Positions 42,950-52,434 of a stretch of 64,000 nt of DNA are shown here, piece by piece; the first letter of the stretch is position 1, and the number at the start of each line of letters is the position of its first letter. Source of the DNA: Microbacteriaceae bacterium (GTDB lineage Bacteria > Actinomycetota > Actinomycetes > Actinomycetales > Microbacteriaceae); contig CANEXL010000001.1 of assembly GCA_947443745.1 (NCBI GenBank), positions 3,185 to 67,184 on the forward strand, in the 5' to 3' direction. The translations under genes were made by a program, and so were the position numbers. Below the pieces are notes generated by a model that saw nothing but the letters and a program-made list of their open reading frames with translations, did no database searches and was not told the DNA's origin.

Positions 42950-44173
42950 TTATTTGGCTGCCGCGGGAGTGAGGCGGGCAACGACAGCTTCGGCTTCTTC
43001 GAGGGAAGCGGTGGACACGGTGGCGATGACTTGGGCGCGTTGGAACGTGTTGAGAGCGTCGAGGCGGATTCCCGTGTCGTTATAAAGGTGTGAGAGTTTC
43101 CATGGTCCGAGGTCTTGCGGAATGCCCTGGAAGATAACGACTGTGCCGGCCGACGAGCCGACAAAGAAGCGGCTCTGCGTGTAGCGATACCCCTCAACTC
43201 CGGCGGCGAAAAGAGCCCCCAAGAGCACAATGATCGTGCCAATCAGCCAGGCGCGGCGGCGGAAGCGCCTCTTGCGGGCGATCTCACTTTCGGCAGTTGG
43301 GGGGTGCTTGTGAATGGGAACATCGCTGGTCGAAACCGGCAGAGAGCGGGAGGCCTGTCGCGAGGCGCGCACGACGTCGGCACGGGGCGACGGTTCAGCG
43401 ATGGAGATCGGTTCTGCTGCGGACCCCACGAGAGAGGAGACCTGCGCGGGTTGACCGTCGGTGACGTTGGCCACAACAACGGTGACGTTATCGGGAGCCC
43501 CACCATCGAGGCTGCCATTCATGAGGGCGAGGGCAATGTCTTCGGCGTCAGCATCCGCCGTCATCATGTCGTGAATTTCGTCACGGGTCAGCACGCCGGT
43601 CAAACCGTCGGAGCACAGCATCCAGCGATCGCCGGGTTCGGTGCCCACAATCATGGTGTCGATTTCGGGGTTCGCGTCTACGTCGCCCAGAACGCGCATG
43701 AGAACAGAACGGCGCGGGTGCACTTTGGCCTCCGCCTCGGTGATGCGGCCGCTGTCGATCAGGCGCTGCACGAACGTGTGATCGATTGTGACCTGCGAGA
43801 GTTCGCCGCCGCGCAGAAGATAGATGCGGGAGTCGCCGATGTGGGCGATGGCCACCTTGTCGCCGACCCGGATGATGGCGCTGACGGTGGTGCCCAAGCC
43901 AGCGAGCTCCGGGTGGTCGTAGACAGTATCGCCGAGCAGGTCATTGGTGGCGAGCAGGGTCTTCAGCAGAGCGCCGCGCGCCTCCTCGGGGGAATCGAAG
44001 GGGCGATCAAGTTCAAGGAGTTGGCGGATGGCCATGTGGGAGGCAACGTCACCACCGGCGTGACCACCCATTCCATCGGCGACGGCCAGAAGGTGCGTTC
44101 CGGCGTAGCCCGAGTCCTGGTTGGAGGAGCGGACCTTGCCTACATCGGAGACAGCCGCATTGTCAGCACTCAT
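42950..44173 (-). CDS. pstP: PP2C Ser/Thr phosphatase
   Basis: NQDS, VADGMGGH, GDSR, CSDGL, DNVT; TM. Confidence 0.94.
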   Translation of the reverse strand: MSADNAAVSDVGKVRSSNQDSGYAGTHLLAVADGMGGHAGGDVASHMAIRQLLELDRPFDSPEEARGALLKTLLATNDLLGDTVYDHPELAGLGTTVSAIIRVGDKVAIAHIGDSRIYLLRGGELSQVTIDHTFVQRLIDSGRITEAEAKVHPRRSVLMRVLGDVDANPEIDTMIVGTEPGDRWMLCSDGLTGVLTRDEIHDMMTADADAEDIALALMNGSLDGGAPDNVTVVVANVTDGQPAQVSSLVGSAAEPISIAEPSPRADVVRASRQASRSLPVSTSDVPIHKHPPTAESEIARKRRFRRRAWLIGTIIVLLGALFAAGVEGYRYTQSRFFVGSSAGTVVIFQGIPQDLGPWKLSHLYNDTGIRLDALNTFQRAQVIATVSTASLEEAEAVVARLTPAAAK

Positions 44174-44181
44174 GGGCCCGC

Positions 44182-44718
44182 CTACCGGCGAACCTCAAAG
44201 CTGGTTGCCCCGATCGTAATGGTGGTGTTCAGGGGAACGGGAGTGGGAGAGGTGACGCGAACGCCGGCCAGGAGCGTGCCGTTCGTGGAGTCGAGGTCGC
44301 GCAGAACCCAGGTTCCGCCGCGGGCTTCGAGCCGCGCGTGATGGGTGGAGGTGTAATCGTCTTTGATGACCAGGCTGGAGTCGGAGGACCGGCCGATGGT
44401 AATCGTGTCGCCCGAAAGCGGCAGTTCTTGCCCCGCCTTGTCGCCCGAGGTGATGACAAGTCTCAGCGGCGCAGAACCGATGGTGGCGGGAGCCGAGATC
44501 ACGTCGGTTGCGGCCGCCGGAATGCGCGGGGTTGCTGAGGTGAGGAAAGCATTCGCGGCATCGCTCCGAGTGCCCTGGGCTGCGGCGCCCTGCGGGGGAA
44601 GACGGCGAACGCGTTGGCCGAAAAGGTCGCTTCTCACGGCGTACACAATAAAGAAGACAAAGACCCACAGGGCAATCAAAAAACTGATGCGCAGGATCAG
44701 GAGGGTGAGCTCACTCAC
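44182..44718 (-). CDS. fhaB: FHA domain protein FhaB
   Basis: N-terminal TM; IGRS, S.HHARL, DLDSTNGT. Confidence 0.92.
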   Translation of the reverse strand: MSELTLLILRISFLIALWVFVFFIVYAVRSDLFGQRVRRLPPQGAAAQGTRSDAANAFLTSATPRIPAAATDVISAPATIGSAPLRLVITSGDKAGQELPLSGDTITIGRSSDSSLVIKDDYTSTHHARLEARGGTWVLRDLDSTNGTLLAGVRVTSPTPVPLNTTITIGATSFEVRR

Positions 44719-45439
44719 GCGGCCCCCAGAATCCGCCGGCATCGGGGGTGGGCGACGACGGACTCGCGTCGGCCTGCGCCTCAGGAATCATGCGGAACGT
44801 GATGCGGGTATGACCCATTTCGATGACCCCGTCTGACTCCAAGGGGGCGGAGACGAGCCGTTGCCCGTTGAGGGTTGAGCCGTTAGTGGAGCCGAGATCG
44901 TTTGCCTGGGCTCGAGTGCCATCCCACAGAACCTCGACGTGACGGCGGGAGATTCCGGAGTCGTCGACCGTGATGTCGGCCTCGGTACCGCGGCCAATAA
45001 CCGTTCGCGATTTTGTTAACGGATACCGCTTGCCAGCGATTTCAAGAACGGCCACCCACGCGATTGCTCCTCCAGCATTGGTGGAGTCAACCTGAACGAC
45101 ACCCAGGGAGAGAGAGGAGTCTGCCTGCAGTGTGATGCGGATGCCGCCGGCGAACTGAAACTTTTGAGACTGGGCGTGCTTGGTCACCAGACGCGTTAGC
45201 TCATCGATCAGGGTTGGCCCCATGGCGGACATCCGCGCGTAATCGGCGCTCGCCATGCGTACGGTGAAGATGTTGGGAACCAGAATGCGGTCACGCGAAA
45301 CCACGGCAGCCTTGGTGTCGAGCTCACGTTTCAGGGCCGACGTGATTTCAACGGGCTGGAGTCCCGAGCGAAAAGTCTTGGCAAAGGCGCCATTGACGGC
45401 GCGCTCAAGACCTTTCTCAAGATTGTCCAGAATGCCCAA
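44711..45439 (-). CDS. fhaA: DUF3662-FHA protein FhaA
   Basis: EKGLERAVNGAFAK..QPVEI; IGRG, SRRH, GSTNG; TTG start after AAAGGAGA. Confidence 0.92.
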   Translation of the reverse strand: MGILDNLEKGLERAVNGAFAKTFRSGLQPVEITSALKRELDTKAAVVSRDRILVPNIFTVRMASADYARMSAMGPTLIDELTRLVTKHAQSQKFQFAGGIRITLQADSSLSLGVVQVDSTNAGGAIAWVAVLEIAGKRYPLTKSRTVIGRGTEADITVDDSGISRRHVEVLWDGTRAQANDLGSTNGSTLNGQRLVSAPLESDGVIEMGHTRITFRMIPEAQADASPSSPTPDAGGFWGPRE

Positions 45440-45522
45440 TTGGTCTCCTTTGGGGGTGAAGCGCGGCCGTTTCCATGATACTTGCCCGATTGGGAGCATG
45501 CTGGATGCCCTCTCAGGCCACC

Positions 45523-46947
45523 CTAGCGAGCCGTTTCGAAACGAACCGAGGCATCCAGGCCGCCTTCGGAGCGCGGAGACAGCCGTGCGGTGCCTCTACT
45601 GGCGCGAGCAAGTTGGGCGACAATAGCGAGCCCCAGGCCGCTGCCGCCGATATTGGAAGAGGCACGCCAGAAGCGGTCGAAGGCTCGCGTGCACTCGTCG
45701 GGGCTCAGGCCGGGGCCCTCATCGAGAACATGCAGGGTGGTGTGGCTGCCGGCACTCACAACGCGCACCGTAATTTTGGAATGTGCTGGGCTCACCGTGA
45801 GGGCGTTGTCGACGTAGTTGTCCACGATCTGCTCGATGGCCGAGGGAGAGGCCGTAACGAACGCATCAACCGGTCCTTCATAACGGATGCGCACCGACGA
45901 CTCGGCACCGAGGGCCTGCCACTGCTCGACGCGTTCCCGCGCAATCGCCGCGACATTGAAGGTTTCCAGCGGCGCCGACGACGCTTCGGTGCGGCTCAAG
46001 AGCAGTAAGCCTTCGATGAGATTGCCGAGGCGATCGACCTCCACCTGGGCGGCAGCGAGGCGCTCGCCGGCGGCGCGCGGATCTGTTGCGAGGAGTTCGT
46101 GGGCGCGTTCCAGTCGCAATCGCAATGCCGTGAGGGGGGTACGCAACTGGTGGGAGGCGTCCGCGGCAAACATGCGTTGCTGGGTGACCAGCTCTTCAAG
46201 GCGTTCGGCCATTGTATTAAAGGAGCGCGAGAGCGATGTCAGTTCGGCCGCGCCTCGCTTCTCGTCGGCACGGGCCGTCAGGTCGCCTTCGGCGAGGAGC
46301 TCGGTTGTCGCTCGAAGACGCGTGAGCCTCTTGGCAACACTTCCGGACACCAACAAGCCCACGATGCCGGCCAGGACCACGGAGCTGAGGGCCACGACGC
46401 CGAGCCGCCAGAGTTGGCTGTTGACGGCATCGGTCACTGCTTGGTCGGGATAGGTAAGGCGAACCGCGCCCAAGACACTTTCGCCACTGAGAACGGGAAC
46501 GGTGACATACAAAAGCTCTTGGTTCAGCGTTGTCGAATAACGGTGGCCACTGCTGATGTTGCCGGCTAAGGCATCGGCAATTTCTGGCCGGCTGAGGTAG
46601 GAGGCGCCCACCACCGACTGGTCATCGTCGCTGGTGACAATGGCGGTGCCTGCCTTGTCGACAATAACGACGCGAGCCCCTCCCGCATCGCGGTACTGGC
46701 GAGCAAGGTCGCTGAGGGCCTTCGAGTCGGCAGGTGTGACCGTTGCGGTTCCTCCGACGGAAGCGGAGGCCGCTGCTGCGGCGAGCGACTCGCTACCGTG
46801 ACCGGCCAGAACGAAGGCGTCGCGTTCGAGGCCAGTGACGATGTGATCGTGCTCCGCTTGGTGCAAATAAAAGGCAAGGGGAATGTCTTGCGTGAGCAGA
46901 ACGAGAAACGTGACCGCCATCAAGGCGCCCATGAACCGCCACTTCAC
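45523..46947 (-). CDS. Sensor histidine kinase (2 TM, extracytoplasmic sensor, HAMP)
   Basis: ASHQLRTPLT H-box, NYVDNAL, DEGPG, FDRF, GSGLGL. Confidence 0.95.
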   Translation of the reverse strand: MKWRFMGALMAVTFLVLLTQDIPLAFYLHQAEHDHIVTGLERDAFVLAGHGSESLAAAAASASVGGTATVTPADSKALSDLARQYRDAGGARVVIVDKAGTAIVTSDDDQSVVGASYLSRPEIADALAGNISSGHRYSTTLNQELLYVTVPVLSGESVLGAVRLTYPDQAVTDAVNSQLWRLGVVALSSVVLAGIVGLLVSGSVAKRLTRLRATTELLAEGDLTARADEKRGAAELTSLSRSFNTMAERLEELVTQQRMFAADASHQLRTPLTALRLRLERAHELLATDPRAAGERLAAAQVEVDRLGNLIEGLLLLSRTEASSAPLETFNVAAIARERVEQWQALGAESSVRIRYEGPVDAFVTASPSAIEQIVDNYVDNALTVSPAHSKITVRVVSAGSHTTLHVLDEGPGLSPDECTRAFDRFWRASSNIGGSGLGLAIVAQLARASRGTARLSPRSEGGLDASVRFETAR

Positions 46948-47621
46948 GCAGGTTCTCCGAACCGAAAACCGACACCGCGAACCGATTCAATCCACAGCGG
47001 ATTTCCGAGCTTCTTGCGAATGGCCGCTATGTGCGCATCCAGTGTCTTGGTGGTGCCATACCAGTTGGTATCCCAGACGTCGTGGAGGATGTCGCCGCGC
47101 CGAAACACCGCCCCGGGATCGTCGCTGAGGTAAACCAGTAGTTCGAATTCTTTGGGGGTGAGGTGAACATCCGTGCCATTTAAGGAGACCCGTTGTGCCC
47201 GAACATCGAGAGTCAAGGCTCCGAAGACGCGTTGGGCAGCCGGGGCAGGTTCCACGACGGTGGAGCCCGTTCGGCGAGCGACCGCACGAATGCGGGCCAC
47301 AAGTTCGCGCATGCCGAAAGGTTTGACGACGTAATCATCCGCCCCCATCTCTAAGGCGATGACACGATCAATTTCTTCGCCCCGGGCGCTGACCACAATG
47401 ATGGGCGTTTGAGACGTGACCCGGATGGCCCGACAGACATCGGTGCCTTCCATGTCGGGCAAGCCAAGGTCGAGCAAAATCAAGTCGGGAGCCCAGGATG
47501 CGGCGGCCTCGAGTGCAGCCGTTCCCGTGGCCACTCGGTGGGCTTCGAAGCTTGCATTCTCCAGCCCGTCCACAATGCCGTCGGCAACGGAGTCATCGTC
47601 TTCCACTACCAGAACGCGCAT
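46944..47621 (-). CDS. OmpR/PhoB family response regulator
   Basis: VVEDD, LLDLGLPD, GADDYVVKPF, LTPKEFELL, VRGVGF. Confidence 0.96.
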   Translation of the reverse strand: MRVLVVEDDDSVADGIVDGLENASFEAHRVATGTAALEAAASWAPDLILLDLGLPDMEGTDVCRAIRVTSQTPIIVVSARGEEIDRVIALEMGADDYVVKPFGMRELVARIRAVARRTGSTVVEPAPAAQRVFGALTLDVRAQRVSLNGTDVHLTPKEFELLVYLSDDPGAVFRRGDILHDVWDTNWYGTTKTLDAHIAAIRKKLGNPLWIESVRGVGFRFGEPA

Positions 47622-47679: not shown

Positions 47680-47720
47680 TCTTGGATAAGTCTTGGATAA
47701 GTCGCGGGCGACTCTTGGAC
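47680..47720 (+). promoter_or_regulatory. 11-bp-periodic direct-repeat operator, copy 1
   Basis: TCTTGGA at 47680, 47691 and 47713, all in 11-bp phase. Confidence 0.85.
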
Positions 47721-48240: not shown

Positions 48241-48260
48241 TCTTGGACAAGTCTTGGATT
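48241..48260 (+). promoter_or_regulatory. Direct-repeat operator, copy 2
   Basis: TCTTGGACAAG-TCTTGGATT. Confidence 0.85.
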
Positions 48261-48303: not shown

Positions 48304-48726
48304 ATGAAGTCTTCGTTAGTGACAGCCCTCATCATTGTGGGCGTGCTCGGAACCGCGACCGCGGCCATGGCCATTAATACCGACACCCTCTCCAAGATTG
48401 ATACGGGTGTCATCGGTAAGGCCAGCGAGGTGCTGGTTCCTGTTGTCACGGATGCCCAACAGCCAGGGCCATTTTCGACGACCCAGCCCGCTCCCGGAGC
48501 GAGCACAGCGCCGTCGTATTCTCCGGAATCCTCAGGCGGCAGCGGTTCTCCGACGAAAGACGTAGGAACGGCGCCCGCTCCGAGCGTTTCTGATCCCGTC
48601 GCCCCGGCCGCACCAGTTGTGGGTGGGTCTGAGGCGACAACGCACTCTAGCTCTAGCCCCTCGTCAACGCCTTCTCACAGCGGTGAATCGGAGCCGTCTT
48701 CTGGCGAGACAGGTCACGACGACTAG
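48304..48726 (+). CDS. Secreted low-complexity protein, paralog 2
   Basis: MKSSLVTALIIVGVLGTATAAMA-INTDT; S/P-rich; ends GHDD. Confidence 0.82.
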   Translation: MKSSLVTALIIVGVLGTATAAMAINTDTLSKIDTGVIGKASEVLVPVVTDAQQPGPFSTTQPAPGASTAPSYSPESSGGSGSPTKDVGTAPAPSVSDPVAPAAPVVGGSEATTHSSSSPSSTPSHSGESEPSSGETGHDD

Positions 48727-48762: not shown

Positions 48763-48783
48763 CCTTGGACAAGTCTTGGATAT
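48763..48783 (+). promoter_or_regulatory. Direct-repeat operator, copy 3
   Basis: CCTTGGACAAG-TCTTGGATAT. Confidence 0.85.
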
Positions 48784-48825: not shown

Positions 48826-49317
48826 ATGAAAACACAACTCCTCTCAGTCCTCACGGTTGTGGGTGTTCTTGGAACCGCCACCGCCGCGTTGGCCGTCAAC
48901 ACAGATACGTTGACCAACCGCGAAGCCGGGGCGACAGATTCGTCGGCCCAGGCTAATGTGCTCTCGACACCTTCTGGTTCATCGTCAGCCCCGACCCCTG
49001 AGGCCATCCCGGCCGCACCCGTCACCCCGGGTTCACCTTCTTCGGAAGGCACCCCCGCCCAAAGCGCCGTTCAACAGCGCACAGACCTTACTCCTCCTTC
49101 GGCTTCGTTGGCCGTGACGGTAGACACTCCATCCCGCCCCACGACGCCACCCGTTGCGCCGGCGGTAACGCCACCCACAACCGCTCCCGTTGACGGAACA
49201 ACCGGCGGTTCGGGAGCAGCGCCGTCAACCCCTGGAACCTCCTATGGTGACGATGGCGATTCTTCGGATGGCTCTTACGAGAGCCACGACAACGAGGATG
49301 GTGGAAGCGATGACTAA
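48826..49317 (+). CDS. Secreted low-complexity protein, paralog 3, with VDGTTGGS motif
   Basis: MKTQLLSVLTVVGVLGTATAALA-VNTDT; acidic tail. Confidence 0.82.
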   Translation: MKTQLLSVLTVVGVLGTATAALAVNTDTLTNREAGATDSSAQANVLSTPSGSSSAPTPEAIPAAPVTPGSPSSEGTPAQSAVQQRTDLTPPSASLAVTVDTPSRPTTPPVAPAVTPPTTAPVDGTTGGSGAAPSTPGTSYGDDGDSSDGSYESHDNEDGGSDD

Positions 49318-49765
49318 GGGCATCCACCCCGCCGCGCGGGCACGGACTTTTGTTGGTGCCACATCGCTCTTGGCTCTTGTGGGAATTGTCACAGGCTTCC
49401 AGTTCGCGGCTAACGCCCAAGAAGCCGGCGTTGCGAGCGGTGCGGCTACGGCCAAGGGCACAGCGACAACGCAAGCCATTGATCCCGCGACGGGGAAGCC
49501 TGTCGCTCCCGTCGACGCGACCGCTCCTGTTTCTGAAGCGGTTCCCGCTCCCGCCGTTGACCCCGCAGCCCCACCCGCCGTGGCACCCGCTCCAGTTGCG
49601 GCACCTGCAGCACAACCGGCCGCGGCACAACCAGCGGCACAACCCGCTGCGGCTCCTGCCGCGGCGCCTGCTCCAGCACCCGCTCCTGCCCCGGCTCCTG
49701 TTGTCGCTCCGGCACCTGCGCCGGTAAATGGAACGACGGGTGGGTCGGGCGCCGTCAAGCCCTAA
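49310..49765 (+). CDS. Exported Pro/Ala-rich protein ending in VNGTTGGSGAVKP
   Basis: ATG overlaps the end of the upstream gene; hydrophobic N-terminal segment ending ANA; (AP)n linker. Confidence 0.8.
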   Translation: MTKGIHPAARARTFVGATSLLALVGIVTGFQFAANAQEAGVASGAATAKGTATTQAIDPATGKPVAPVDATAPVSEAVPAPAVDPAAPPAVAPAPVAAPAAQPAAAQPAAQPAAAPAAAPAPAPAPAPAPVVAPAPAPVNGTTGGSGAVKP

Positions 49766-49831
49766 CGGCACTTCGGCCCGCCCGCCTGCCCGAGCGCAAC
49801 CACTCACTCCACGACTGAAGCGAGCCTCGCC

Positions 49832-50857
49832 GTGACTTCTGCTCCGCACTCTGCCACGAATCCCGCCACGAACCCTGCCACGAACCCCGCCGTTACCGGG
49901 GACAATATTTCGCGAGACGCCCTTCGCGCCGTCTTTTCTCTCACGGGAACGCAGCCGCGGGTAATTTCGTCGCGCCAGGAAATAATGGGCGGCCACGGCA
50001 CGATTACGTTAGTCGGTGCCTCCGACGCCCTGATGACGCGGGCGTGGGACGTTGTGCGCACGTGCGAAAAACGCTGGACGCGGTTCTCGCCCGACAGTGA
50101 TATTTCTCGACTCAACCTCGCCGAAGGGGCGCCCGTTGAGGTTGATCCACTCACCTTCCGCCTGATCTCCGCAATGAGGGTGGGCCACGAAATATCCTTG
50201 GGTGCTTTCGATCCCACTCTCTTAGTCGACGAGCTCAAGGCGGGTTACGGCGCCTCCGTTCTCGACCCGTCCCGTGCGACGACCCTGCCGGCCTCGGCGG
50301 TGAGCCCGGGGAACATGGCGGGCATCCGCCTGGCTGACACCACCGTCACCCTGCCGCTGGGCACCGTGCTGGACGCCGGGGGAATTGGCAAGGGACTTGC
50401 CGCCGACCTCGTGTGTGCATTCGCGCTCGCCGAGGGGGCGTGGGGCGTAATGGCGGAGATCGGGGGCGACATTGCGGTTGCGGGGAACGCTCCGGACGGA
50501 GTGGCCTGGCGACTCGGCATTGAGAACCCTTTTGACACGCAGGCGCATGCGGCGATCATCCGGTTATCTGAAGGCGCCATTGTGACGTCGAGCCAACGCA
50601 AACGTCGATTTGGCCCGGAAGGCAACGAGACCCATCACCTGATTGACCCGGCGACCCATGCCAGCGCGAAAACGAACGTGCAAACGGTGACGGTGATTGC
50701 GGCAACCGCGGCGCGAGCCGAAGCCCTCACGAAACCCGGTTTTCTTCAAGAAACGACTCGCTACCTGGAATGGTTGCCGACCGTCGGTGCGGCGGGCATG
50801 GTTATAGATGACGCGGGGGCCGAACTGGTTTCCGAGAACTGGATTCGATATCAATGA
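49832..50857 (+). CDS. apbE: FAD:protein FMN transferase (ApbE family)
   Basis: RFSPDSDISRLN, GAFDPT, LDAGGIGKGLAAD, IGGDI, WRLGIENP, TSS, HHLIDP. Confidence 0.93.
   Translation: MTSAPHSATNPATNPATNPAVTGDNISRDALRAVFSLTGTQPRVISSRQEIMGGHGTITLVGASDALMTRAWDVVRTCEKRWTRFSPDSDISRLNLAEGAPVEVDPLTFRLISAMRVGHEISLGAFDPTLLVDELKAGYGASVLDPSRATTLPASAVSPGNMAGIRLADTTVTLPLGTVLDAGGIGKGLAADLVCAFALAEGAWGVMAEIGGDIAVAGNAPDGVAWRLGIENPFDTQAHAAIIRLSEGAIVTSSQRKRRFGPEGNETHHLIDPATHASAKTNVQTVTVIAATAARAEALTKPGFLQETTRYLEWLPTVGAAGMVIDDAGAELVSENWIRYQ
49853..49891 (+). repeat. 12-bp tandem repeat x3 (ATNP)
   Basis: GCCACGAAYCCY units. Confidence 0.85.
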
Positions 50858-52434
50858 ATGATCCGCACATCTGGTGGTACATCACCCGTGCCAGCGCGCT
50901 GATTGCGTGGGCGTTGATGACGCTCTCTGCCATCTGGGGCATTCTGCTCTCCACCCGCATCATGCGCCGCATCGATAACCCCGGTTGGCTGCGCGACTTG
51001 CACTCCTACCTGGGCGGAATGACGCTCGTCATGGTGGGCCTGCACATGGGCAGCCTCATGCTCGACGGCTATCTTCGTTATACGCTCGGCGACCTTCTCG
51101 TTCCTTTCAGCAAGGACTACCGACCGTTTGCCGTGGCCCTCGGAATTCTGGCCTTTTATATATTGCTGGCCGTTCAGGGGTCCTCCCTTCTCATTGCGCG
51201 CTTGCCGCGAAAGGTGTGGAAGGTCATTCATTACGCCAGCTACGCGACGCTGATCTTGGTGTCGTTGCATGCCGGATGGACGGGCACGGATGTTGGAGCC
51301 CTCTGGTACAAAATTCTGGCGATTACCCTCATTGGCGCCGCGACGATTGCGGTCGTCGTTCGAGTGGTGACGCGCGGCCGCACGGGACGAGCTCCCACGG
51401 CGAAAGCATGGACGCACAAATCGGGCACCATTCCCAGCGTTGCTCCTGTTGCTGCTGGTGCTCCCCTTCTTCCGGCGACGCGCACGATGGTGGTTGCTTC
51501 CACATCCATGGCAGCGGATGCCGTGATGGCCATTCGGCTCGTGTCCCTCGGCGGATCGGCTGGTGGCGGGACTGGTGCTGTGGGCTCTGGGGCCTTGCCC
51601 GTCTGGTATCCCGGCGCGCACATCACGCTGTCACTGCCTAACGGGTTGCAGCGCCAGTACTCGCTGTGCGGCGACCCCGCCGAGCGCGACCACTTCGACA
51701 TCGCGGTACTGAAGACCCGTCACTCCGAGGGGGGCAGCGAGTTCATTCACGCGAACCTCACCCCGGGCATGACGCTCGAGGTCTCTGGGCCGCTCAACCA
51801 CTTCGAGCTGGAGCCCGCCTCCGACTACCTCTTTATTGCCGGCGGTATCGGCATCACGCCGATTAAGGCCATGATCGAGTCGTTGCCCGAGCGTCGCCAT
51901 TGGCGCCTCATCTATGCCGGGCGTTCGCGCACGACGATGGCGTTCTTGCCCGAGTTGCTTCAGCGCTACCCCGATCGCATTTCGGTGCATGCCGCCGATG
52001 AACAGGATGCCGAACTCGACATCGCCTCCCTCGTGGTCGACACCGATGCGCAGGTCTACTGCTGTGGCCCCGAGTCGCTGATGAGCACCACGGCGGCGCT
52101 GGTACCGGCCGCCCAAATGCATTCCGAGCGCTTCGTCGCCGTCGAGCGCACCTCCGACGTTGCCGCCCAAGCGATTGACGTCACCTGCCGCAAGAGTAAG
52201 AAGGAGTTCGTGGTCGGTGCCGACCAGAGCATTCTTGAGGCGATGGAAGCCAACGGTATTCCCGTGCTGGGCTCGTGTCGCAAGGGGGTGTGCGGAACCT
52301 GCGAGGTGCGCATCGTGGAGGGCGAGCCCGTGCACCTTGACTCGGTGATGCCCGATGACGAAAAGGATTCTTTGCGCGTGATGTACCCGTGCGTCTCGCG
52401 GGCCGTGGGCAAGGAGCTCGTGCTCGACATCTAG
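50854..52434 (+). CDS. Ferric reductase-like (heme b) TM domain fused to a PDR/VanB-type flavin/NAD(P)H/2Fe-2S reductase
   Basis: TM histidines in LHSYLG, LHMG, WKVIHYASY, LHA; RQYSLC, GGSE, AGGIGITP, YCCGP, CRKGVCGTC...C. Confidence 0.9.
   Translation: MNDPHIWWYITRASALIAWALMTLSAIWGILLSTRIMRRIDNPGWLRDLHSYLGGMTLVMVGLHMGSLMLDGYLRYTLGDLLVPFSKDYRPFAVALGILAFYILLAVQGSSLLIARLPRKVWKVIHYASYATLILVSLHAGWTGTDVGALWYKILAITLIGAATIAVVVRVVTRGRTGRAPTAKAWTHKSGTIPSVAPVAAGAPLLPATRTMVVASTSMAADAVMAIRLVSLGGSAGGGTGAVGSGALPVWYPGAHITLSLPNGLQRQYSLCGDPAERDHFDIAVLKTRHSEGGSEFIHANLTPGMTLEVSGPLNHFELEPASDYLFIAGGIGITPIKAMIESLPERRHWRLIYAGRSRTTMAFLPELLQRYPDRISVHAADEQDAELDIASLVVDTDAQVYCCGPESLMSTTAALVPAAQMHSERFVAVERTSDVAAQAIDVTCRKSKKEFVVGADQSILEAMEANGIPVLGSCRKGVCGTCEVRIVEGEPVHLDSVMPDDEKDSLRVMYPCVSRAVGKELVLDI

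Follow-up and report, generated by a model that had tools for sequence, protein, structure and literature searches.

Here we describe a short conserved Thr-Thr-x-Gly-Ser tag that is shared by two small, exported and unstructured proteins encoded next to ApbE, a flavin-attaching enzyme, in a bacterium of the family Microbacteriaceae (genus Alpinimonas). The tag sits where other bacteria have a folded flavin-binding domain and is therefore probably a natural, domain-less flavin attachment site for exporting electrons, a reading inferred from comparative sequence evidence and unproven by experiment. The locus lies in the window analysed here, a stretch of 64,000 nucleotides from contig CANEXL010000001.1 (positions 3,185 to 67,184, assembly GCA_947443745.1).

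The original prediction was that two otherwise dissimilar neighbouring proteins carry the same motif after long Pro/Ala/Thr linkers, with conservation at the protein level, and that the Ser of the motif is the FMN acceptor of a domain-free flavin tag. Our analysis confirms the observation. The interpretation is only partly supported: comparative evidence speaks strongly for a dedicated, domain-free tag linked to apbE, while flavin attachment itself and the role of Ser as acceptor remain inference.

Results

The tag is conserved at the protein level

Translation gives APVDGTTGGSGA at 49183-49218 (+) in the protein we call P3 and APVNGTTGGSGA at 49718-49753 (+) in its neighbour P4. A six-frame scan of the whole assembly (2,000,687 bases) finds GTTGGSGA only at these two places. 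Compared codon by codon, the two 12-residue motifs have 2 identical, 9 synonymous and 1 non-synonymous codon, so the conservation is at the protein level and does not reflect a recent DNA copy. The two carriers are otherwise dissimilar. P3 (48826-49317, +) has a signal peptide, a disordered P/S/T linker, the internal tag and then an Asp/Glu/His-rich tail. P4 (49310-49765, +) is a protein of 151 aa with a different conserved N-terminal membrane helix or signal (MTK.IHPA..AR...ALVGIVTGFQ..ANAQE), a Pro/Ala-rich coil and the motif 5 residues from its end, where it is followed by VKP and the stop. The likely start of P4 is the ATG at 49310, which overlaps the stop of P3 by 8 nt, rather than the TTG at 49190.

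Two paralogous small exported proteins precede P3. P1 (47766-48194, +) has a conserved signal peptide, a P/T-rich body and an acidic tail but no tag. P2 (48304-48726, +) has an acidic tail and a weak internal SSGGS (48529-48543). Both points agree with the original prediction, but the P2 site is not kept in the congener. A direct repeat CTTGGA-N5-CTTGGA, a candidate regulator site, lies upstream of P1 (47681-47697, +), and the direct repeat CTTGGACAAGTCTTGGA lies upstream of P2 (48242-48258, +) and of P3 (48764-48780, +). A pattern count finds these three copies on the + strand of the window, all upstream of P1, P2 and P3, and none on the - strand.

The motif is far beyond chance. Among P4 homologues, 54 of 64 full-length members match [ST][ST]x[AG]S within 5 residues of the C-terminus, whereas the same pattern occurs in 0.40% of all six-frame frames of 100 aa or more in this genome. 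P4 homologues keep the N-terminal helix and the C-terminal tag, mostly NGTT[A/G]GSGG, while the linker varies freely. T142 is invariant, and T143 and S146 are found in at least 90% of members. Using tblastn-guided extraction, we found that P3-type proteins keep [D/N/H]G[T/I][T/S]GGS just before the acidic tail in 17 of 27 related loci (63%). In P3, T125, G127, G128 and S129 are invariant or nearly so in an alignment with 29% mean column identity, and the Ser is present in at least 90% of the P3-type proteins that carry the motif. The predicted acceptors are Ser129 of P3 (codon 49210-49212) and Ser146 of P4 (codon 49745-49747).

We considered whether the open reading frames arise by chance in GC-rich DNA. 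Several overlapping long open reading frames exist here on both strands, and GC3 of P3 and P4 is not elevated. However, the change is mostly synonymous, including in the first 44 codons of P4 against the congener (19 identical, 16 synonymous and 9 non-synonymous). Homologues occur in about 12 or more genera with conserved ends and a variable linker, and the synteny and the start/stop overlap are conserved. This explanation is effectively refuted.

Neither protein has a recognizable fold

P1 to P4 have no Pfam family at E <= 0.1 and no NCBIfam family. AlphaFold2 predicts for P4 only a helix at residues 7-44 and coil elsewhere. We looked for a degraded FMN_bind domain in P4 and rejected this possibility, as there is no Pfam hit and only 66 nt separate P4 from apbE. 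Searching the ESM Atlas gave only unannotated actinobacterial clusters. Metatranscriptome contigs (run X13) lie at 90-97% identity on parts of P1, P4 and the P4-apbE junction of a related strain, although contigs from an RNA library cannot prove transcription and uncovered parts mean nothing. A 580-base skip in this comparison is the P4 end of a relative matching the P3 tag of the window, not a deletion.

The tag gene is invariably linked to apbE

Downstream of P4, the gene at 49832-50857 (+) encodes an ApbE-family FAD:protein FMN transferase (PF02424; 4.9e-47, 161 bits against a cut-off of 25.6) that matches solved ApbE structures at 1e-21 to 1e-12. It overlaps by 4 nt the gene at 50854-52434 (+), which encodes a membrane haem-b (MsrQ-like/Ferric_reduct-like) domain fused to FAD_binding_6, NAD_binding_1 and 2Fe-2S. 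The membrane domain itself gives only a sub-threshold DUF4405 hit and is 40% identical (E 2e-46) to a PF01794-positive protein in the equivalent slot of another locus (L087). Upstream and transcribed away from the cluster are a sensor histidine kinase (45523-46947, -; HAMP, HisKA, HATPase_c and a Cache-like sensor) and an OmpR-type response regulator (46944-47621, -; Response_reg plus Trans_reg_C).

P4 belongs to a small family from Microbacteriaceae. Of 28 further Microbacteriaceae loci retrieved with the P4 profile, all 27 that reach past the gene have P4 directly upstream of apbE, followed by the haem-b/NAD(P)H reductase and with no FMN_bind gene. The order is kinase-regulator, transcribed divergently from P3-like, P4, apbE and the reductase; the kinase is syntenic with the cluster in all complete loci, and response regulator orthologues 57-76% identical lie next to the P3-like gene in the related loci that reach that far. 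The P4 profile, which is dominated by low-complexity sequence, found nothing outside Microbacteriaceae among 282 genomes from other families of the order. Analogous tag proteins in other families were found only through their ApbE neighbour.

Related ApbE genes across Actinomycetia are also preceded by Pfam-less proteins ending in such tags. In 27 ApbE loci from 40 relatives, the upstream gene is an FMN_bind or FMN_bind-like protein in 18 and a small Pfam-less protein ending in [T/S][T/S]xGS in 9. Ten analogous proteins examined have no significant Pfam family. The genome of the window has a second, canonical cluster (reductase, FMN_bind, apbE) on another contig, and PF04205 matches in this genome only on another contig. 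One genome (G105, 96% complete) has the ApbE of this cluster as its only ApbE and no FMN_bind match even at E <= 1.

The tag departs from the canonical ApbE motif

The canonical acceptor motif of ApbE substrates is D-x-x-[S/T]-G-A-[S/T]. DGTTGGS of P3 matches 6 of 7 positions and NGTTGGS of P4 matches 5 of 7, so strictly the canonical motif is not satisfied. The original prediction described the tag as one A-to-G change from the canon, but this is not the family rule. The commonest form is NGTTAGS, with A-G rather than G-A at positions 5-6, these positions are mostly A-G or G-G across the family, position 1 is N, S, D, A, K or H and rarely Asp in P4, and only [G/A] at position 2, [T/S][T/S] at positions 3-4 and Ser at position 7 are conserved. 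Nevertheless, a minority of homologous or analogous tags include the canonical [S/T]GA[S/T]: KASTGASGG, HATTGASGAKP, TSTGASGG, TTTGAS and TVTGAS. Conversely, a bona fide FMN_bind protein of the family has NISGGTYTT, with G-G at the same positions.

The linked ApbE enzymes form their own clade

On a tree of ApbE proteins, the 57 tag-linked enzymes lie on one side of a branch (SH-aLRT 91) from the 18 FMN_bind-linked ones. This is one change of state, against 16.4 in shuffles. The tag labels on the tree were assigned by us after seeing the sequences and some are weak (for example TRASR), the class-level loci were chosen as the best matches to this ApbE clade, and kin are not independent.

Ser241, His257 and Asp285 (V. 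cholerae numbering) are named as the only conserved residues of the catalytic centre (PMC12052999). In the enzyme of the window the equivalents of Ser241 (TSS) and His257 (HHLIDP) are kept, Asp285 is Glu and the Thr four residues on is Lys (AEALTK). All 39 P4-cluster enzymes have AExL[T/S/A]K where the FMN_bind-linked ApbEs mostly have ADxxAT, and across the tag-linked clade the Asp285 equivalent is Glu or Asn, so the chemistry may differ. It is therefore conceivable, though in our view unlikely, that the enzyme modifies the tag with something other than FMN, such as the AMP half of FAD or another nucleotide-linked group, or only hydrolyses FAD as the Treponema Ftp enzyme does; ApbE-family members with FAD pyrophosphatase activity are described (PMC4767422). 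However the Ser and His equivalents and the DxGGIGKG and HHLIDP motifs are kept, Glu is a conservative replacement, one FMN_bind-linked ApbE (L014) also has Glu, and the genomic context with a haem-b/NAD(P)H reductase needs a redox cofactor on the outside.

The ApbE has no hydrophobic N-terminal segment in the window or in related loci, and no signal peptide or lipobox in any locus, while the positive-inside rule puts the tags outside the cell. Flavinylation would therefore have to precede Sec export, or the enzyme would have to reach the outside unconventionally. Cytosolic ApbEs are known (PMC12052999), and the canonical FMN_bind-linked ApbE of this genome has the same problem. We considered a P4-ApbE read-through fusion that would export ApbE, since in the window the two genes are in the same frame and separated by a single TAA. 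The same holds in only about 5 of 29 loci, which is no more than chance, and this possibility was rejected. A flavinylation motif in the reductase itself was likewise rejected, as its Gly/Ser-rich insert (GGSAGGGTGAVGSGA) is not conserved in the congener. A complex prediction using the ApbE core alignment, the last 47 residues of P4, FAD and Mg scored 0.72, but one unrelated control scored 0.54, and the result counts neither for nor against binding.

Discussion

We favor, with moderate confidence, a model of a natural version of the synthetic Flavin-tag, in which P3 and P4 are exported or membrane-anchored, intrinsically disordered proteins whose short tag ([D/N/S]-[G/A]-[T/S]-[T/S]-[G/A]-G-S) is the substrate of the dedicated ApbE paralogue encoded just downstream. 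That enzyme would transfer FMN from FAD onto the last Ser (P3 S129, P4 S146), as ApbE does on the last residue of its canonical motif. The flavin would hang on a roughly 100-residue Pro/Ala spacer with no FMN_bind domain around it. It would act as a tethered carrier, taking electrons from the outer haem of the downstream protein along the path NAD(P)H, FAD, 2Fe-2S, two haems b, and passing them to an extracytoplasmic acceptor, most plausibly Fe(III) held by the Asp/Glu/His-rich tail of P3-type proteins. Our analysis establishes the motif and its conservation, the invariant synteny, the absence of a domain, the equivalent gene slot, the canonical TGAS variants and the separate ApbE clade. Covalent attachment of FMN, Ser as the acceptor, the electron path, iron as the acceptor and modification before export are inferred.

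The model is feasible in the light of the literature. A seven-residue tag at a protein terminus is enough for ApbE, D-to-A has a minor effect, G-to-A and A-to-V leave about 50% flavinylation, and Ser is accepted (PMC12052999). However, a flavin without a protein pocket would be exposed to O2, and Thr/Ser/Gly motifs in Pro/Ala-rich exported actinobacterial proteins could instead be glycosylation sites.

In this alternative the motif would serve a process unrelated to ApbE, such as O-glycosylation of the Thr-Thr pair, as is common in Pro/Ala/Thr-rich exported actinobacterial proteins, or act as a flexible hinge or processing signal, with ApbE serving a different substrate. In its favor, T142 and T143 are as conserved as S146, the motif lies in Pro/Ala/Ser/Thr-rich, low-complexity, exported sequence, the ApbE lacks a signal peptide, and most genomes with the cluster also have an FMN_bind protein elsewhere. 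We nevertheless consider it unlikely. Each FMN_bind gene has its own adjacent ApbE, G105 has no FMN_bind at all, the tag gene always abuts apbE and the ApbE clade tracks the tag. The spacing of the tag mirrors the ApbE motif position by position and includes canonical TGAS forms, and a glycosylation site would not need to sit at the extreme C-terminus with an invariant final Ser.

Also doubtful is that P3 and P4 are metal-binding or cell-wall proteins, with acidic/His tails and Pro/Ala spacers, that work with the reductase and use the shared motif to dock onto the membrane haem protein. Acidic/His-rich tails are conserved in P3-type proteins, and the N-termini are more conserved than ordinary signal peptides, which suggests protein-protein contacts. 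But this explains neither why apbE is always present with no other candidate substrate in the cluster nor the likeness to the ApbE motif. The tag also occurs on proteins of unrelated composition (S/T-rich, coiled-coil or lipoprotein-like) whose only common feature is the neighbouring ApbE.

Known ApbE substrates carry their motif in folded domains (FMN_bind of NqrC/RnfG/PplA, NqrB/RnfD, DUF2271, DUF3570, Flavodoxin_4, FMN_red). As with these, the gene described here lies next to apbE, the product is an exported partner of a membrane electron conduit, and the motif aligns position by position ([G/A] at 2, [S/T] at 4, small residues at 5-6, a hydroxyl residue at 7). What differs is the absence of a folded flavin-binding domain, the location of the tag at or within 5 residues of the C-terminus or before an acidic tail, and the deviations from the canonical residues described above. 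None of PMC8238504, PMC12052999 and bioRxiv 10.1101/2024.03.13.584918 lists such a substrate. Another close parallel is the synthetic Flavin-tag (Tong et al. 2021, as described in PMC12052999), in which a seven-residue ApbE motif outside any flavin-binding fold is enough for covalent FMN attachment and a terminal position works best, matching the C-terminal position of the natural tags. That tag is engineered from the canonical motif and used with Vibrio ApbE, whereas the tag here is natural, divergent and paired with its own ApbE clade.

The context appears to fit the MsrQ-like flavinylation-associated gene clusters of Actinobacteria, in which apbE is next to a Ferric_reduct/MsrQ-like haem-b membrane protein with a C-terminal NAD-binding module and which are suggested to reduce iron (Meheust et al. 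2021, PMC8238504). In relatives the reductase module is a separate NuoF-like protein. An FMN-binding-domain gene is typical of such clusters though not obligatory; here that gene is replaced by P4, P3-type proteins are added and the cluster is flanked by its own two-component system. A Bifidobacterium apbE mutant grows poorly under ferrous-iron chelation (PMC5449479). In the extracellular electron transfer of Listeria and Shewanella, through secreted free-flavin shuttles and flavinylated PplA (named in PMC8238504), a solvent-exposed flavin likewise carries electrons beyond the membrane, but here it would be covalently tethered to a long flexible spacer, neither free nor held in a domain.

A broader reading, which we offer only tentatively, is that a whole ApbE subfamily across Actinomycetia is dedicated to short C-terminal tags ([T/S][T/S]x[G/A]S) on intrinsically disordered, exported leash proteins. 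In this view the signal-less enzyme flavinylates the unfolded tail in the cytoplasm, and the tail then passes through Sec, which a folded flavoprotein domain could not do. The tethered flavin would carry electrons from a membrane haem-b reductase through the cell wall to Fe(III) held on acidic/His-rich partner tails, a minimal, domain-free extracytoplasmic redox relay and the natural counterpart of the engineered Flavin-tag.

ApbE flavinylation is known only on folded domains, and surveys that start from Pfam domains leave orphan apbE genes unexplained; Meheust et al. still report 4% of apbE genomes as orphan. The ApbE clade found here may have a different motif preference, which could make it a second, orthogonal enzyme/tag pair for protein labeling. 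A natural, domain-less tag would add a new substrate class and show that a covalently tethered but otherwise naked flavin can serve as an electron carrier. It would also explain a recurrent, unannotated gene next to apbE in many Actinomycetia.

The shared motif and its gene cluster

The two 12-residue stretches, at 49183-49218 in the small protein P3 and at 49718-49753 in its neighbor P4, lie where the original prediction placed them. A six-frame scan of the whole 2.0 Mb assembly finds GTTGGSGA nowhere else. Of their 12 codons, 2 are identical, 9 differ synonymously and 1 differs non-synonymously, and the likeness is therefore kept at the protein level. The observation is thus confirmed, and it generalizes well beyond the window. 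Public sequencing runs that hold this DNA are lake and freshwater metagenomes, and the congener used for comparison is Alpinimonas psychrophila DSM 23737, of the family Microbacteriaceae.

The cluster starts with a histidine kinase (45523-46947) and an OmpR-type regulator (46944-47621) on the minus strand. On the plus strand come three paralogous small exported proteins, P1 (47766-48194), P2 (48304-48726) and P3 (48826-49317), followed by P4 (49310-49765), whose ATG overlaps the stop of P3 by 8 nt, and by apbE (49832-50857). The last gene encodes a haem-b membrane domain fused to FAD/NAD(P)H/2Fe-2S modules (50854-52434) and overlaps apbE by 4 nt. P1-P4 have no Pfam or NCBIfam family. The cluster sits directly beside the conserved actinobacterial pstP (PP2C phosphatase) and fhaB/fhaA (FHA-domain) genes (42950-45499).

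Direct repeats of the form CTTGGA-N5-CTTGGA, with an 11-bp period, lie upstream of P1, P2 and P3 only (47681-47697, 48242-48258 and 48764-48780), with three on the plus strand of the window and none on the minus strand. They are a likely binding site for the divergent OmpR-type regulator, inferred from sequence alone, which suggests that each small gene has its own regulated promoter. Contigs from a freshwater metatranscriptome library (run X13) lie on parts of P1 (47805-48199), P4 (49498-49648) and the P4-apbE junction (49765-49914) at 90-97% identity and so come from a related strain, which is compatible with expression but does not prove it. P4 and apbE are in the same reading frame, separated by a single TAA and 22 sense codons (49763-49834). 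However, the same is true in only about 5 of 29 related loci, so this arrangement is probably due to chance rather than programmed read-through.

P4 is a small conserved family with a C-terminal tag

A word-indexed search found 31 homologues of P4 and a full HMMER scan of 1.84 billion representative proteins found 46 clusters, so the family is small. All members share a strikingly conserved N-terminus (MTK.IHPA..AR...ALVGIVTGFQ..ANAQE), a Pro/Ala-rich linker of variable length and sequence, and a C-terminal tag. The commonest tag is PVNGTTAGSGG followed by the stop, with variants that include NGTTGGS, SGTTAGS, SATTGGS, NGSTGGS, DGTTAGS, DATTAGS, AATSGGS, KASTGAS, DATSGQS and TGTTKPS. Only [G/A] at position 2, [T/S][T/S] at positions 3-4 and Ser at position 7 are kept, and zero to five residues follow the Ser. 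The pattern [ST][ST]x[AG]S within 5 residues of the end is carried by 54 of 64 full-length members, while it occurs in 0.40% of all six-frame frames of at least 100 aa in this genome. AlphaFold2, run with the family alignment, predicts a helix at residues 7-44 and coil for the rest. Between the window and its congener, the first 44 codons show 16 synonymous and 9 non-synonymous differences.

The P4 profile matched 38 of 400 other sampled Microbacteriaceae genomes (39 of 401 with the window's own), of which about 28 are full-length matches from about 12 or more genera. Twenty-eight further loci held a true P4, and in all 27 that extend far enough the order is kinase-regulator <> P3-like, P4, apbE, reductase. 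No FMN_bind gene is present in these clusters.

P3-type proteins share a conserved signal peptide and an 'A..VLVP' box. Before an Asp/Glu/His-rich tail, 17 of 27 related loci (63%) carry [D/N/H]-G-[T/I]-[T/S]-G-G-S, and in the alignment of these proteins T125, G127, G128 and S129 are invariant or nearly so, against a mean column identity of 29%. Within a genome the two tags tend to vary together, with SATSGGS accompanying SATTGGS in A. psychrophila and DATSGGS accompanying AASSGGS in one Cryobacterium.

The tag gene occupies the position of FMN_bind genes

The genome of the window has a second, canonical MsrQ-like cluster on another contig (contig C5; positions 56-2592 of the locus designated L001), consisting, in this order, of a Ferric_reduct/FNR reductase, an FMN_bind protein and apbE. 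The acceptor motif of this FMN_bind protein is itself non-canonical (NIGGATYTS), and a relative (locus L065) has NISGGTYTT. Four complete 1.6-1.7 Mb genomes of one genus each have two apbE genes and a single FMN_bind, which lies next to the other apbE. One genome (G105, 96% complete) has only the P4-cluster apbE and no FMN_bind match even at E <= 1.

We classified the gene upstream of 27 ApbE loci from 40 relatives. Of these, 18 encode an FMN_bind or FMN_bind-like protein and 9 encode a small, N-terminally anchored, Ser/Thr-rich or Pro/Ala-rich protein ending in ...DATSTGS, ...AATSGGS, ...HATTSGS, ...VSSTGS, ...TSTHGS, ...TTKASG and the like. These nine come from several families, and their clusters continue with a Ferric_reduct membrane protein and, in the two loci scanned with Pfam, a NuoF-like protein. 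In another family of the order, one locus (L007, genome G040) holds an analogous four-gene module that the P4 profile does not detect, with an acidic DDHGGD-tailed exported protein, a P4-like protein ending PPPVHVTTKASG, an ApbE with the Glu/Lys signature described below, and a haem-b membrane protein. Many Microbacteriaceae ApbE genes (loci L015-L025, L030 and L066-L068) are preceded by an FMN_bind-like protein that matches Pfam below threshold and whose acceptor region reads VAGSSLTSGGF, so that A-G-S-S stands in place of S-G-A-T, another unstudied motif variant.

At the level of the class, the 29 best ApbE matches from 400 Actinomycetia genomes are again mostly preceded by proteins with such ends, for example DATSGGSGG, NTSTGGS and NTTTAGS; the tallies of this search include one unpublished genome (G715), on which no claim rests. 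Several have the canonical [S/T]GA[S/T], namely TSTGASGG, HATTGASGAKP and TTTGAS, and HATTGASGAKP is a near-twin of the window's NGTTGGSGAVKP. Ten of these upstream proteins have no significant Pfam family, the only hit being a sub-threshold DUF4349 match at E 0.0056. A few, at loci L088, L093, L096 and L106 upstream of tag-clade ApbEs, look like small folded lipoprotein-like proteins of about 230 aa, with a conserved Cys-containing region (...TYFEVC...C...) and no Pfam family. They end in ...NSGTS, ...SHSHGS, ...SNSKGS and ...NSSQS, which may be the same tag on a folded, undescribed domain. The downstream genes identified are Ferric_reduct or NuoF-like.

The enzyme co-varies with the type of upstream protein

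The ApbE of the window keeps the DxGGIGKG motif as well as the Ser (TSS) and the His (HHLIDP) that align with Ser241 and His257 of the Vibrio enzyme. However, the Asp285 equivalent is Glu and the Thr four residues later is Lys, and all 39 P4-cluster enzymes show this signature (AExL[T/S/A]K). Most FMN_bind-linked ApbEs have ADxxAT, and the Ser/Thr-rich tag type has ANxxST. The Asp285 change leaves room for altered chemistry.

On a maximum-likelihood tree of 75 ApbEs, the 57 tag-linked enzymes lie on one side of a branch (SH-aLRT 91) from the 18 FMN_bind-linked ones. This distribution requires one change of state, against a mean of 16.4 in label shuffles (0 of 500 as low). The labels were nevertheless assigned after the sequences had been seen and some of the tags are weak, the class-level loci were picked as the best matches to this clade, and kin are not independent. 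The N-terminus of the window's ApbE (49832-49990) is polar, with ATNP repeated three times, and has no hydrophobic segment or lipobox. The same holds for all related loci and for the ApbE of the canonical cluster.

A possible domain-free substrate for ApbE

ApbE recognizes D-x-x-[S/T]-G-A-[S/T] and modifies the last residue, and seven residues at a protein terminus, the 'Flavin-tag', suffice. Within this motif D-to-A has little effect, G-to-A and A-to-V leave about 50% flavinylation, and Ser is accepted less well than Thr (PMC12052999). The known natural substrates are folded domains: FMN_bind, NqrB/RnfD, DUF2271, DUF3570, Flavodoxin_4 and FMN_red (PMC8238504; bioRxiv 10.1101/2024.03.13.584918). 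Meheust et al. (PMC8238504) note that orphan apbE genomes remain and that MsrQ-like clusters of Actinobacteria 'typically' contain an FMN-binding gene. A full-text search for flavinylation together with intrinsic disorder returned only an unrelated complex II paper, and within the literature searched we found no description of a natural domain-free ApbE substrate.

The original prediction took the motif for a non-canonical flavinylation site with its Ser as the FMN acceptor. This interpretation is the best available and is well supported by comparative genomics, yet it is supported only in part, as flavin attachment is not shown. The conservation of the tag, its synteny with apbE, the absence of a recognized domain in P1-P4 and the separation of the linked enzymes on the tree are results of the sequence comparison, whereas the attachment of FMN, the identity of the acceptor, modification before export, the path of the electrons and the role of iron are inferred. 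A glycosylation or docking role for the motif cannot be excluded on present evidence.

None of these ApbEs has a signal peptide, yet the tags are predicted to be outside the cell. As the ApbE of the canonical cluster in this genome also lacks a signal peptide, the problem is not specific to the tag hypothesis. Modification of an unfolded tail before Sec export would solve it and would give a reason for having a domain-free substrate. Sec can pass side-chain adducts of this size. A substrate Lys (NqrC K207) is stated to help activate the acceptor Thr (PMC12052999), and the invariant Lys gained by the tag-clade enzyme might, speculatively, take over that role for a substrate that has no domain.

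In the mechanism that we propose, the cluster's own ApbE would attach FMN to the tag Ser of P4 (S146) and P3 (S129). The link to iron in this proposal rests only on the composition of the tails, on the iron role proposed for MsrQ-like clusters and on the iron-chelator phenotype of a Bifidobacterium apbE mutant. Compared with the ApbE flavinylation already described in MsrQ-like systems, the new element would be a substrate without a folded domain. The flavin, on a roughly 100-residue Pro/Ala spacer anchored by (or released from) the conserved N-terminal helix, would accept electrons from the outer haem of the fused reductase and would deliver them outside the membrane, plausibly to Fe(III) bound by the acidic/His-rich tails.
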